Origin: Elusimicrobiales bacterium
GTDB taxonomy: Bacteria; Elusimicrobiota; Elusimicrobia; Elusimicrobiales; UBA9959
DNA: 64,000 nt
Assembly: GCA_049972095.1 (NCBI GenBank)
Contig: JBMFKQ010000002.1
Coordinates: 1-64,000 of the forward strand
Reading direction: 5' to 3'
In this document: piece by piece, positions 6,001 through 15,000 of the stretch
Layout: every line of letters starts with the position of its first letter
Position numbering within the stretch: position 1 is the first letter of the stretch
Program-made: the position numbers

Positions 6001-9000
6001 TTGAGATATATGACATTTGTTTTTCTTGGGTTGTGCTTTATATTAAGTTGCTCTGTTTGTTCTTTGTTTTCCAATATGAATGGTTGAAGATCTTTTGAAA
6101 AAACACCTCTGTTTAATACAACCCTTATCTCATCTCCATCATAATAAGCTGCAATGATTTTGGTTGATTTCTCTACCTCAAAAAGTGATGTATAAATCTT
6201 TGGATCCCCTTCAAAGATGTATATCTCTTTCTGATTTGTGTATTTGAATATTCTATCAAATGATTCTTTATCCTGCCAGTCCTTAAACTTTGGAAGTATT
6301 CCTATTTCTTTATTTTCAAGTGAGTATTTAGATGTATCAAGGATAAAAAGAAGCCCTTTATTTGTTAGGCTTTGAGGTAGTATCTCAAATCCTTCAAGTC
6401 CATCAGTCTTATTCCATATCCATAATCTCCATCCATCATAGTTTTCATCTATCCTGTTGTAATATATCTCAAGAGTATGTGATGGAAGGGTGCTCATAAT
6501 AAAACCCCATAAAACTAAAAACAGTTTTTTCATACCTATAATTATAGCAATTTAAAAAGTAAAATATTATTTATATGGCATTATTTCTATTTATTAGCTT
6601 GCTTTCCTATCTTTCAGCATCAACGGATTACTGGAAGATTGATCTTTCTACCTCCGATGTTGAATATTTGAAGCGAAAGATTAAAGAACAAAAGCTTATA
6701 AGAGGAATTCATCTTACAAGCTGGGTTGCTGGAGATGATAAAAAAAGGGCTGAGATTATTTCACACATAAAAAACTCAGTCATAAATACAGTTGTCATAG
6801 CAGTAAGAGAGAAAAACGGTGAGGTTTATATCCCTCAAGTCAACTTCTCCTTAAGATATGGCTCTTATCTGCCCGTGATGAAAGACCCTAAGAAGGTTGT
6901 TGATGATTTTAAAAGGGAAGGGTTATATGTAATAGCAAGAATTGTTTGCTTCCATGATAACATAACTCCTAAAAAAAACCCAAATCTTGCAGTAAGAAAA
7001 GCTGATGGAAGCCTTTGGAGGTCAAGAAGGGGTGATACATGGCTTGATCCTTATAATAAAGAAAATTGGAATTATATACTTGAGGTTGCAAAGAAATGTG
7101 CTGAATATGGATTTGATGAAGTACAGCTTGATTATGTGAGATATCCCACTGAAGGAGATGTCTCAGAGTGTGTATTCTCAAAGCCACATAATAAAGTAAA
7201 TGCTATGAGAAATATTGTAGAGTTCATAAAACATATTAAAAATGAGATGAAGGATTATGGTGTTAAAGTCAGTGTTGATGTTTTTGGTCTTACAACAGCA
7301 TCTGATATGGGAATAGGACAAAACCTTTTGATGATCTCAGATATTGCAGACAGAGTTTATCCGATGATGTATCCATCACATTATTATACAAGTGTTTATG
7401 GTATATCATATCCTGAGATAGAACCTTATAAGGTTATAAACAGAGGATTGGAAGAGGCAATAAAGGCTGTTGGCAAAAATTATTATAAAATCACTCCATA
7501 CCTTCAGGATTTTTCTCTCAAGGTAAAATACACACCGTATCATGTAAGGGCACAAATAATAGCTGCAAAAAATAATATGATTGATAGTTTTATCCTTTGG
7601 AATCCTAGTTCAAACTATTCGTGGAGTTTACTGAAAAAAGAGGTTTTTTGTTCGCTAATAGAGCCAGAAAAGTGTTTCAATGATTAGTTTTTAAATATGG
7701 TAGAATTTAGTTATGGGCCATTAGCTCAATGGTAGAGCAGGCGCCTCTTAAGCGCAAGGTTACAGGTTCGAGTCCTGTATGGCCCAAGGCTTGGTGTTAC
7801 TAACCAATATTAAGAGGTTTTTGAAAAAATCTCAATAGAGAAAAAGCCCTCGTGGCGGAATTGGTAGACGCGCATGGCTTAGGACCATGTCCGAAAGGGT
7901 GCAGGTTCGAGTCCTGCCGAGGGCAAATCTTTTTAACTTTAAATCTTACTATAATCTCAGAATTTAACAAAAGTGTGTGTTTTTTGATAGTTTAAATTTG
8001 ATAAAATTAGATTAGACTTGGGGGATAGATGAACTATAAAAGAGAAAAAACAGAGGGATGTAGTTTGGTTTATGAGGTGAGTTTTGAACCTACTGCTTAT
8101 GAGATTATAGAGAAACAAGCATTTAATGAGGTTCAGAAAGAGGTATTATATCCTGGTTTTAGGAAAGGCAAGGTTCCTTATGAGATAATAAAAGAGCATT
8201 TTTCACAAGCAGTTAGAGAGAAAGTGGAGAAAATAGCCATTGGAAGGGCAGTAGGAGAAATAATTGAAAGGGATAAGATAATTCCTGTTGTTCATCCCTC
8301 AGTTTATGATATAAAACATGAAATACCTTCAAAAAAACTTTCATTCAAAATCTACTTTGAGATATCACCTGTTTTTGAACCAAAAGGTTATACAGATTTT
8401 GAGATAGTTAAGAGAATTAGAAAAATAACAGATAAGGATGTGGCTAATTACATAGAGCAGATAAGAGAGCAAAATGCTTATCTAAAAAGCGTAGATGCTG
8501 TAGCTAGTGCAGATAAATATGTTGTAGTTGATTATGAGATATATGAAGATGGAAAGAAGGTTGATGAGGTTAGAAATGAAATGGTTGATATGTCATCACC
8601 ACAACAAATTGCCGGTTTTGAAGAAGCTATTGTTGGTGCAAAAAAAGGCGATATTAAAGAGTTTGAAACAAATTTTGATAAGAGAAGATTAAAATTTGTT
8701 ATTACTGTAAAGGATGTTAAGGAAAAGGTGATTCCCGATATGGATGATGCTATGATAAAACAGCTTGGGGCAAAGGATATAGATGATCTTAAAAATCAGA
8801 TAAGAGTCTTTCTTGAAGATGAGGAAAGGATTAAATCCGAAAAAGATTTCATTGAACAGATAGAGAATAAACTTATTGAGAATAACCAGTTTCCTCTTCC
8901 ACCAACACTTCTCAGACAGGAAATGGAAGAGCTTTTTGAGATTGCAAAAAAAAGAGCAAATCTTCCTGCTGAATATAAACTTGATGTAAAGGATTATGAG

Positions 9001-12000: not shown

Positions 12001-15000
12001 CTATATATAGTCTTATCTCTAAAAAACCAGTTTTAAAGGGCATTTCGATGACAGGAGAACTTACTCTTACAGGGAAGGTTCTTGCTATAGGTGGGCTTAA
12101 GGAAAAGATAATAGCTTCTTATAGAGAGGGGATAAAAAGAGTTATATTCCCTTACTTGAATATCAAGGACCTTTCTAATATACCATCAGAGATAAAAAAT
12201 GATATGGAGCTTATTGCTGTTAAAAATATGAAGGAGGTTATAGAAATAACAATTGAGGGAAAGAGGACACAAAAGTAGAGGATAAGTATATGAGATTGTT
12301 TTTAATATTGTTTAGTTTCTTTATACAAAACCATCTGTTTTCTTATGAACAATCCCTAACTGATGAGGCGACTAAGGGAAAGCTTGAGTCTGCAAGACTT
12401 GATGAGATGATTGAGAAGTATCTTGCAACCATATCTATGTATGATCCTGAAAGAGCAACATATCTTGGTATTCATGACAATGACTATCTTTTGACATCAA
12501 GAGATTATGCAACACAAGGAAGTTTACTTGATGCAATTAGGTTTCTAAAAAAAGACATTGAAAGAATTGATTATGAGTCTCTTGATGTATTTAAAAGATC
12601 TGAATACAATACACTAAGCTCAATGATTGAAAACGATATCTATGGGATAGAAAACATAAAGAGACTTTCTCTTTATCCTCAGTATTATCTTGAGCCTTTT
12701 GATACTGTTTATTTTATGATGACGAAGGATTATGCTCCATATATGGCAAGAGCAAAGAATGCCCTTGCAAGGCTTTCAAAAATCCCATCTATTCTCTATC
12801 AGGCTGAAAGAAATATAACAAGACCACCAAGACCCTGGACAGTTTATTCAATAAACAGAGCATCTTATACTATTGTAAATCTCGGCGATTATTATCAGGT
12901 TTTTAGAAACTATATAGGACTTGACCCAACCCTTAAAACAGAATTTGAAAATATTATATCAGATTTGAAAACTGCGCTTGAGAGGTATAAAAGATTTCTT
13001 GAAAAAGAGGTTCTTCCAAGATCTGATGGCAAGGCATATTCAGGACTCTATACTTATGGTTTCTATCTTGAGAGATGGCATGGTATAGATTACAATCCTA
13101 GAAAGGCAATGAGGGTTGCAAAGAGAAATTTTATGAAGAATTATGCAAGGCTTGTTGAGGAAGCAAAAAAGATTGCCCCAGACAGATACTCTGAAGGTGG
13201 TATAGCAGCGGTTTATCAGTTTATTAGTGGAGATTATCCAGAATATGATAATGTGGTAAAAAATATATCCGATCTTTTTGAAAAAGCAAAGGATCATTTT
13301 GATGAATACAGGGTTATAAAATATCCTCAACAGCGGCTTCTGATAAGAACATCACCAGTTTTTTTTACTGGTTTTTATCCTTCATTCTTCTACATCCCCC
13401 CTTTTGCTCTTGACAAAGAGAGGGTTGGAGAGATATATATTTATCTTCCAAATGAAAAGGATAAAGAAAAACAAGAAAAAATATTATCCTCACTTTATTC
13501 ACAACCAAAGATCGAGCTTTTTATATCAAGCCTCTTAATCCCCGGACTTCACATCAGATATGATTATTTAGGTGGTTTATCAAAGATAAGAAAAGTTGCT
13601 TATCATCCAGCACTTGATGGGTGGATGGATTTTGCAATTGACCTTGCAATGGATATGGGATATTACTCAAGTGTATATGCACCATTTCTTACACAGTATT
13701 TTAAAACCCTTAGAGCTTTGAGAGGATATCTTGATGTTGCTTACCATATTGAGGAGATCAATTGGGATGAGGCGAAAGAAAAATTTAATAAGTACTTTGG
13801 TCTAAACAATGATATGTGTGAATACGAGATGCTTAACATTTCTATGAAGCCAAGCTATTTTTTTGCTGCTGTTTATGGATATAATGAGATTGTTAAGCTT
13901 AAAAATAAGTTTGTTGGTTCCGAGAACAGGTTTTTTGATCTAAGAGAATTTAACTCTGACTTTCTTACAAGGGGAAATATATCATTTAAGGATATAAAGG
14001 AAGAACTTAAAGTCATAAGGAAGGAAAGGCTTAAGAAAAAGATACTTGAAGAAGAGGAATATGAAGAATGATTTTGCAGCTATAGATTTTTTTGAGGTTT
14101 CTAAAACATATTTCACAAAAAGTTTTTTTAATTCATTTCAAAAAAAAGTTCTTGATAAAATTACATTCTCTGTTGCTAAAGGCTCAATCACTGGACTTGT
14201 TGGAGTAAATGGGGCAGGGAAAACTACAGTGATAAAGATAATATGTGGCATAACTAAACCTGACAGTGGAAGTGTAAAGATTATGGGGGTTGATGTTTTA
14301 AAAAAATCATATCCAGGAAGTATTGGATATACAAGCGAGCTACCGTATTTTTGCCAGTCATTCAGTGTTGAGGATACTGTGAGATTCTTTCATTCTATAT
14401 CAGATACACCCGTTGATGAAAACAAGCTTAAAGAGATATACCTTCTAAGCGATATCGAAAGGTTCAAAAATGAGAAGGTCAAGAATCTTTCAAGAGGTAT
14501 GCTTCAGAAACTTTCTATTGCCTGTGCGCTTGTTAATGATCCCAAGATTCTGGTTCTTGATGAACCAACAGAAGGATTGGACCCAATCTATGTAAAAAGC
14601 ATGAGAGAAATACTTCTAAGGATAAATGAAAAAGGAAAAACTGTGTTTTTCTCTTCACATAGAATATCAGAGATTGAGAAAATATGTAGTGTTGTGATTG
14701 TTATAAATCGTGGAAGGATTATAAGGGTGTTTGATGATAGAGGTATGTTTAAAGACAGCCTTGAAAGTAAGGTGATAGAAAGTATAGAGAAGGATGCTTA
14801 GAAAGGTTTTCTATATATCATTTTATTCAATAAAAGAATTTTTTCTCTCTAAGATTTTCTATTTTGTTTTTTTTCTAATACTTTTTTCTTTTTTTATTTC
14901 ATCAATAGTAAGTATTATGGCTGTTAGCCAGGAGAGAAAGGTTCTTTCAGATTTTTTTGTTGCTTTGGCACAGATGGCAGTGCTTTTATTTGCTTTGATA

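Follow-up and report, generated by a model that had tools for sequence, protein, structure and literature searches.

Deletion of clpX and a rewritten tmRNA tag in Elusimicrobiales and neighbouring families, with Lon as the likeliest tag reader

ClpX, a machine present almost universally, disposes of proteins that come from stalled ribosomes. Here we show that the ancestor of Elusimicrobiales and five neighbouring families deleted clpX from tig-clpP-clpX-lon, and that the tmRNA tag of this clade no longer ends in L-A-A and carries a conserved aromatic-Ala-x-Ala ending instead. The housekeeping ClpX was lost while ClpP and trans-translation were retained, and what is new here is that the tmRNA tag changed along with the loss. 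By analogy with Mollicutes, we regard Lon as the likeliest reader of the rewritten tag, with a probability of roughly 0.55.

The window, a stretch of 64,000 nucleotides from an Elusimicrobiales genome (G000), contains the locus listed in Table 1. The initial annotation had described it as tig-clpP-lon with 47 nt between the last two genes, and both profile matches and sequence bear this out. The spacer is too short for a gene and contains the ribosome-binding site of lon, while in the relatives G280, G222 and G179 clpX lies between clpP and lon. When aligned with the ClpP of clpX-bearing relatives, the ClpP of the window was free of lesions. The cluster described as canonical in a survey section (tig-clpP-clpX-lon; PMC7804408), which belongs with the ClpXP/LAA system covered in part of PMC7652416, shares locus and gene order with the one analysed here, except that clpX is cleanly gone and the tag end is no longer Ala-Ala. 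In the sister families f4, f5, f10, f11 and f13 the canonical cluster is intact and tags end in -LAA.

Table 1. Features of the tig-clpP-lon locus in the window.
Feature	Position	Strand	Basis
tRNA-Lys(CTT), upstream of tig	7714..7787	+	ARAGORN
tRNA-Leu(TAG), upstream of tig	7846..7925	+	ARAGORN
tig, trigger factor, 414 aa	8029..9273	+	TIGR00115, 257 bits, over cut-off
clpP, 203 aa, intact	9286..9897	+	NF001368, 286 bits, over cut-off
clpP-lon spacer, 47 nt, site of clpX in clpX-bearing relatives	9898..9944	.	sequence
lon, LonA protease, 777 aa, proposed tag reader (putative role)	9945..12278	+	TIGR00763, 951 bits

As previously annotated, G000 has no clpX, the top TIGR00382 score being 35 bits on an FtsH-like ORF. 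Since this assembly is gapped and also lacks rpoB, absences in G000 alone prove little, and we base the claim on the clean clpP-lon junction found, among 30 genomes examined, in G000 and 15 others. No match to TIGR00382 over cut-off occurred in the 151 genomes of Elusimicrobiales, and the ClpX zinc finger (PF06689) was found in none of 20 f1 and none of 81 f2 genomes. Five further families of the class (f6, f7, f8, f9 and f12) had clpX over cut-off in 0 of 29 genomes; together with the order they form one clade on the RpoB tree (SH-aLRT 96), in which 0 of 187 genomes have a canonical clpX by TIGR00382. The loss had been presented as a trait of Elusimicrobiales, which proves too narrow: the clade is larger, and the absence recurs elsewhere in the phylum, in f21, as noted at the outset, and likewise in f14, f18 and f19, all of other classes. 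Families f18 and f21 possibly share the same ancestral deletion. The survey section cited above names only Tenericutes and Dehalococcoides as missing clpX, and ClpP without ClpX has already been reported for the latter (clpP with a ClpA-type ATPase; PMC7804408). Like the present clade, Dehalococcoides keeps a ClpP whose sole partner is a double-ring Clp ATPase, but it is one genus where the clade spans eight families, and that section draws no link to the tag.

The statement that ClpX is missing from all sampled genomes of the order holds at the profile cut-off but needs qualification, as 31 of the 151 carry a ClpX-like gene scoring 110-330 bits. This also confines to G000 the initial view that ClpC is the only visible partner of ClpP. 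That such a gene replaced ClpX, which would then have diverged rather than been lost, might be argued from its retained Walker A/B motifs, GYVG pore-1 loop and arginine finger, together with an IGF/VGF-type ClpP loop in 20 of 21 copies (the remaining copy is truncated). However, about four fifths of the order, G000 included, lack the paralogue, and this patchy distribution largely refutes the replacement reading, which we consider very improbable. Further, the N-terminal C4 zinc-binding domain is absent from all 21 copies, with a profile of the paralogue N-domain retrieving PF22977 winged-helix proteins instead, and neither the RKH loop (GRKH) nor the canonical pore-2 loop (SITRDVSGEGV) occurs in any of 65 paralogues, as compared with 35 of 35 canonical ClpX in each case. 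Its loci are variable and island-like rather than fixed between clpP and lon, with a WYL regulator adjoining in 12 of 20. The paralogue was also considered as a relocated housekeeping clpX, which is unsupported: zinc-finger ClpX of several phyla fall on one side of the tree (support 99; unrooted, with long branches), and records from Desantisbacteria, Firestonebacteria and Endomicrobia contain the paralogue too. Candidate copies with similar scores below the cut-off accompany canonical clpX in f15 genomes. The paralogue is accessory and not a substitute for ClpX.

Trans-translation had been annotated as kept. SmpB is indeed present in G000 and a search of 59 clade genomes found tmRNA in 58, although in the gapped G000 assembly no tmRNA was detected by ARAGORN, Rfam, blastn or a phylum-specific nhmmer profile; the genes that flank tmRNA in relatives located no gap there. 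RqcH, the factor for alanine tailing, was over cut-off in 0 of 80 genomes whether or not they bear clpX, and its co-loss with ClpX is therefore uninformative.

The terminal Ala-Ala is described as the main determinant for ClpX in the part of PMC7652416 consulted, and all 47 tags from clpX-bearing genomes end in -AA. By comparison, the tags of the clpX-less clade end in aromatic-Ala-x-Ala in 58 of 58 cases, mostly as W-A-H/T/N-A. The -4 residue is Trp in 56 and Phe in 2, and Trp at this position is almost exclusive to the clade among the matches listed; position -2 can be H, T, N, V, L or A, is mostly polar (H, T, N) and is other than Ala in 56 of the 58. Codon usage in the tag points to selection at the peptide level: all four Ala codons are in use at the fixed -3 position. 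Outside the clade, clpX-less family f18 has V-A-H/Y-A/C in 8 of 8 tags, with Val rather than an aromatic residue at -4, and further shifted tags in genomes without clpX are YATA (G156), YAVC (G151) and PLFA (G206). G154, which combines an AA tag with the lack of clpX, was not counted as an exception, as its assembly is without tig, clpP and lon as well; G155 shares this gap, and its tag is still among the eight of f18. Five genomes were counted neither way: G270 and G318, both of which also lack lon, and G321, G322 and G323, which are 52-60% complete.

Such an ending could conceivably have drifted after the loss of ClpX, or been shaped by helix pairing in tmRNA, with tagged proteins cleared non-specifically and no selection by a protease. 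Three recent losses, G194 (clean clpP-lon junction), G172 (tig-lon) and G238 (clpX pseudogene), still have -AA, tag endings are scattered in reduced f15 genomes (SVV, for example), and Syntrophia-type genomes carry the ending despite having ClpX. Against this, all 58 tags, drawn from eight families, have an aromatic residue at -4 and Ala at -3 and -1 although synonymous positions differ, and unrelated phyla show this ending again. We consider drift or helix pairing a distinctly improbable account.

Genomes with [FY]-A-x-A tags, mostly outside the phylum, had been predicted beforehand to lack clpX, and 32 of 39 do, compared with 1 of 11 controls; roughly 20 of these 39 belong to small Patescibacteria-type kin and may be incomplete. 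In two of the seven exceptions, ClpX lacks its RKH and pore-2 contacts. The other five are delta/Syntrophia-type genomes with YATA or YAYA tags and a ClpX whose RKH and pore-2 loops are intact. Like these five genomes, the three recent losses with -AA and the Val at -4 in f18, the small number of independent events weighs against the explanation favoured below: the RpoB tree contains only 3 tag changes, an independent-pairs test on it was not significant (1 concordant and 3 unchanged pairs), and a single origin for all shifted lineages in that tree was not rejected (p-AU 0.12). At the C-termini of G000 ORFs the motif occurred in 0 and 1 of 1170, counts without power to detect avoidance.

Based on these data, we propose that once the ancestor had deleted clpX, the terminal Ala-Ala would no longer have been needed and the tag may have been re-selected for another protease. 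As in Mollicutes, this would most likely be Lon, whose gene now stands directly behind clpP, with ClpP kept for other work with ClpC and the same tag ending arising repeatedly in unrelated clpX-less bacteria. Gur and Sauer reportedly found in 2008 that the Mollicutes ssrA tag had switched from ClpXP to Lon. Mollicutes and the clade are alike in lacking ClpX, keeping tmRNA, having an aromatic-Ala-x-Ala end and placing lon beside tig. Mollicutes tags, as given in the parts of PMC9382460 and PMC8403727 consulted, end in NYAFA and are read by Lon, whereas in the clade the aromatic residue is Trp and the penultimate one polar. Moreover, the clade keeps ClpP and ClpC in genomes that reach 2-4.6 Mb; the additional absence of clpP, a Mollicutes trait, was found only in the f15 genomes G172 and G206. 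Reading by Lon is known in Mollicutes and proposed for the clade. Tag length also differs, being about 27 residues in the extended Mollicutes type and 9-12 coded residues in the clade. M. florum Lon prefers the full 27-residue tag over its last ten residues (KM 4.2 vs 20.6 uM, as stated in the part of PMC10695633 consulted), and the shortness of the clade tags counts against Lon. LonA was present in 5 of 5 [FY]-A-x-A genomes tested.

The hand-over to ClpC implied by the initial annotation is possible but not favoured. ClpC with ClpP would then degrade the tagged proteins and W-A-x-A would be tuned to ClpC, a reading we regard as unlikely, if the strongest of the rivals. Of 15 clade genomes tested, 14 have ClpP (the single miss is an assembly gap), and in G000 an LGF-type loop (TLGF) is carried by the ClpC-type gene at C6:46201-48720 and not by the ClpB-type gene at C7:278-2845, just as had been annotated. 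The near-exclusive Trp could likewise reflect a clade-specific reader. Gene presence itself fails as a guide, with full or near-full-length ClpC in 76 of 78 clpX-less genomes and Lon in 79 of 80. Plastids, in the account given in part of PMC7966870, also serve ClpP by ClpC without ClpX, although they are organelles with a heteromeric ClpP/R core, as opposed to free-living and gut bacteria with trans-translation genes. Mycobacterial ClpC1P1P2 degrades GFP-ssrA, but ClpC1 reads a tag that still has the LAA ending (both from part of PMC4416901), so that ClpC need not force a change of tag. Adaptor searches in five genomes found McsB in G207 and G305 but not in G000, G042 or G165, and ClpS in G305 only; the lack of both in G000 and G042 speaks against ClpC. 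Lon is favoured over ClpC because the tag form is the one that Lon reads in Mollicutes, and because it also occurs in a genome without any detected Clp gene: G382, a single contig of 615 kb, has a YAYA tag with Lon and FtsH and no ClpP, ClpX, ClpC or ClpB match. Mollicutes and G206, the latter without a full-length ClpC match, may be cited alongside it; in G206 tig lies directly before lon and the tag has about 55 coded residues.

FtsH, alone or with Lon, might read the tag as a non-polar C-terminal degron. Two FtsH-like genes occur in G000, FtsH stands next to Lon in the protease set of G382, it was present wherever a full inventory was made, and E. coli FtsH degrades ssrA-tagged proteins (stated in part of PMC8403727). 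We consider this less probable than reading by ClpC, as polar residues prevail at the penultimate position of the clade tags and as M. pneumoniae, with only Lon and FtsH, uses Lon as the main reader in vivo (same source).

A tag-to-Lon switch is usually regarded as a mycoplasma peculiarity. Here eight families whose genomes reach 4.6 Mb form a clade that lost ClpX, kept ClpP and moved its tag to a mycoplasma-like register. We tentatively suggest, at somewhat less than even odds, that aromatic-Ala-x-Ala is a general short Lon degron, evolved repeatedly and taking the place of the ClpX signal in most lineages where ClpX, or the loops with which it reads the tag, are lost. If so, the Mycoplasma switch would exemplify a second, widespread route of quality control that extends to free-living, ClpP-keeping cells, and the protease wiring of a bacterium would be predictable from the last four residues of its tag. 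Together with its sister-family controls, the clade constitutes a natural experiment on degron/protease co-evolution that is testable with purified enzymes. The 27-residue M. florum tag is in current use in synthetic biology, and a tag of 10-11 residues, if it evades ClpXP and a foreign Lon reads it, would provide an orthogonal degron of smaller size. Lineages named under the general-degron reading are the Elusimicrobiota clade, Patescibacteria, some Marinimicrobia, Humimicrobiia, small-genome Bacilli and Mollicutes.

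The order tig-clpP-lon and the short spacer that the initial annotation described at this locus, in place of the canonical tig-clpP-clpX-lon, were both recovered, and the relatives of its Lon among named GTDB records belong to Elusimicrobia and Elusimicrobiales. The further claim that the genome has no clpX stands on different ground. While a search of the source assembly with TIGR00382, the curated ClpX profile, gave no match above 35 bits, this absence taken alone is weak, since the assembly (1.44 Mb) is gapped into 58 contigs, rpoB is missing and tmRNA was not found in it; given a completeness rating of 96.5%, these gaps also indicate that marker-based completeness overstates the genome. 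The strong evidence for the loss is instead the clpP-lon junction.

Features of the window at and around the tig-clpP-lon locus
Feature	Position	Remark
Putative pullulanase-like glycoside hydrolase, 818 aa	4077-6533	upstream of the locus; by look of sequence
tRNA-Lys, tRNA-Leu		with tig-clpP-lon
tig	8029-9273	passes curated family cut-off
clpP	9286-9897	passes curated family cut-off
Spacer, 47 nt		between clpP and lon
lon	9945-12278	passes curated family cut-off
Genes resembling a type IV pilus or type II secretion cluster	35817-44721	putative PilM/N/O-like, secretin, ATPase, PilC, prepilins

Across the phylum, clpP was present in 26 of the 30 genomes searched. It was followed directly by lon in 15 (families f1, f2, f3, f6, f7, f9, f14, f18, f19, f21 and f24) and directly by clpX in six (f4, f5, f10, f11, f13 and f15), the cluster being dispersed or interrupted by a contig end in the other five. 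Extra or relocated clpP genes lie outside the tig-lon cluster in genomes G200 (locus L088), G207 (L094), G247 (L091), G196 (L092) and G243 (L110); in G200 and G207 the following gene is presumably the heat-shock repressor hrcA.

No genome of the order passed the TIGR00382 cut-off (0 of 151, and none of seven further f2 genomes), as the initial annotation had claimed from a smaller sample, but the loss reaches beyond the order where it had been placed. In a phylum scan the ClpX zinc finger was detected in 95 of 251 genomes and in none from f1 (0/20), f2 (0/81), f6 (0/4), f7 (0/1), f8 (0/20), f9 (0/4), f12 (0/1) or f18 (0/10); by TIGR00382, too, 29 genomes of f6-f9 and f12 lacked clpX. The gene is present throughout the same-class families f4, f5, f10, f11 and f13. 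The clade-wide loss of this near-universal gene is real. Family f15 keeps clpX in 78 of 89 genomes. Two of its members, G172 (a single contig; L363/L367) and G206 (L364/L369), carry tig directly before lon with neither clpP nor clpX between, and in neither was ClpC matched over its full length; their lack of a Clp protease recalls Mycoplasma. In a third member, the reduced genome G238 (L468), a clpX pseudogene occupies the place of the gene. Another reduced f15 genome, G260, has a clpX pseudogene (C26:5702-6679) alongside an intact copy.

Strong TIGR00382 matches below the cut-off occurred in 31 of the 151 order genomes, and 20 of these loci (L019-L038) were retrieved. Each encodes a ClpX-type ATPase of 450-580 aa in which the motor motifs and IGF loop are retained, the zinc finger is missing and the N-domain is new, its profile recovering PF22977 winged-helix proteins. 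These paralogues cluster in a tree apart from all zinc-finger ClpX and occur also in Desantisbacteria, Firestonebacteria and Endomicrobia records. A WYL regulator adjoins 12 of the 20. The neighbourhoods also hold genes for AAA ATPases and nucleases, along with DUF2779/Cas4-like, type III restriction and metallo-beta-lactamase-fold genes; the AAA ATPase next to the L019 paralogue has an IGF-like motif at its end as well. The paralogue is an accessory gene with no copy in the source genome, and that it reads the tmRNA-encoded degradation tag is scarcely credible, as the tag-reading RKH and pore-2 loops were found in 0 of 65 paralogues vs 35 of 35 canonical ClpX.

tmRNA was detected in 45/46, 3/5, 70/77 and 8/10 genomes of four sets. 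Tags were taken from ARAGORN calls where made; the rest were translated in three frames and read by eye, a procedure that could bias long f15-type tags towards the expected ending. The tag ended in Ala-Ala, the ClpX signal, in all 47 clpX-bearing genomes and in aromatic-Ala-x-Ala in all 58 genomes of the clpX-less clade, the aromatic being Trp in 56 and Phe in 2, and x being His (23), Thr (23), Asn (7), Val (2), Ala (2) or Leu (1). Because all four Ala codons are used at position -3 in the clade, conservation seems to lie in the peptide and not in the bases, and selection would then act at the peptide level; we regard mere drift of the tag as very improbable. Other clpX-less tags end in V-A-H/Y-A/C (f18, 8/8), YATA (G156), YAVC (G151) or PLFA (G206, 55 residues). 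The Ala-Ala end is retained after clpX loss in G194, G172 and G238, each a lone loss among clpX-bearing kin. The 0.5-Mb genome G324 has a tag ending in SVV.

In an RpoB tree of 46 genomes (the source genome, lacking rpoB, and G206 were left out), f1, f2, f3, f6, f7, f8, f9 and f12 group together as a single clade (SH-aLRT 96), to which the clpX-less f18 and f21 are weakly sister (85); f19 falls elsewhere (92) and f14 is without placement. Just three tag changes are seen on this tree, all on clpX-less branches. A pairs test of tag change against clpX loss was not significant; a single origin of the shifted tags was not rejected (p-AU 0.12; 0.018 without f14). Long RpoB frames (1350-1580 aa vs the usual 1230-1290) in L362 (G151), L341 (G207), L359 (G247) and L357/L358/L360 (f24) suggest insertions or inteins.

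In a wider test, a GTDB scan for a tmRNA-like start followed by W-A-x-A-stop gave at least 120 matches; 116 of the 120 listed were tmRNAs, and among 80 titles listed all real ones were Elusimicrobiota or bore no name. Scanning for [FY]-A-x-A-stop likewise gave at least 120, those listed being mainly Patescibacteria, with small-genome Bacilli, Humimicrobiia, Marinimicrobia, WOR-3, Syntrophia-type deltaproteobacteria, one Midichloriaceae and two Elusimicrobium. Many small-genome records in L472-L591 with Patescibacteria-like tags are titled Gammaproteobacteria or Nanoarchaeia and may be mistitled or mixed bins. With the prediction on clpX fixed beforehand, 50 of the 120 loci listed were hand-picked to span lineages, comprising 39 genomes with such tags and 11 chance matches that served as controls. 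No clpX was detected in 32 of the 39 vs 1 of the 11, in genomes whose completeness is not given and of which about 20 of the 39 are related small genomes, that is, a few lineages and not 39 events. The tag rewrite matches clpX loss and recurs in unrelated clpX-less bacteria. Among the seven exceptions, the WOR-3 and Midichloriaceae genomes (L597 in G347 and L598 in G348) keep the ClpX zinc finger with the RKH and pore-2 contacts lost and the tags shifted, and five delta/Syntrophia-type genomes (among L592-L596 and L599-L601), with YATA/YAYA tags and intact ClpX, are true counter-examples. The Syntrophia-type genomes also encode a second, zinc-finger-less ClpX-like protein of 580 aa and a different type (L592-L596, L599-L601).

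According to PMC7804408, clpP and clpX are both missing only in Tenericutes, and Dehalococcoides has clpP without clpX; plastids also lack ClpX (PMC7966870). The literature searched, which took in neither subscription papers nor tmRNA databases, yielded no account of a lost clpX or an altered tag in Elusimicrobiota or Patescibacteria. Mollicutes, which lack ClpXP, have a tag ending in NYAFA that is read by Lon (PMC9382460); in M. pneumoniae, Lon is the principal reader in vivo (PMC8403727). The clade resembles them in way of working and is not a member of that system, as it keeps ClpP and its tag is short. Its tag lies in the same register as NYAFA, a register also seen where only Lon and FtsH were found: in G382, a single 615-kb contig searched in full and with the tag end YAYA, tblastn matched Lon and FtsH and no ClpP, ClpX, ClpC or ClpB, although tig was unmatched too and divergent genes could be missed. 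LonA was present in five of five clpX-less test genomes. The Mollicutes precedent, the shared register and its occurrence with Lon and FtsH favour Lon as the probable reader in the clade, at a probability of roughly 0.55; this identity, like the order of clpX loss and tag change, we infer from the observed losses, tags and gene inventories.

The ClpC that the initial annotation proposed as ClpP partner does carry the docking loop and is kept in 76 of 78 clpX-less genomes, and mycobacterial ClpC1 degrades ssrA-tagged GFP (PMC4416901); on these grounds ClpCP is a live, though rather unlikely, alternative as tag reader, less favoured than Lon. FtsH, the other protease matched in G382, or shared reading would be less likely still. 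No alanine-tailing route was seen, as RqcH was found in 0 of 80 genomes of a phylum sample. ClpC-like matches also lie within very long open frames (2700-17755 aa) at G232:C37:51133-52899, G281:C54, G287:C19 and G282:C36.
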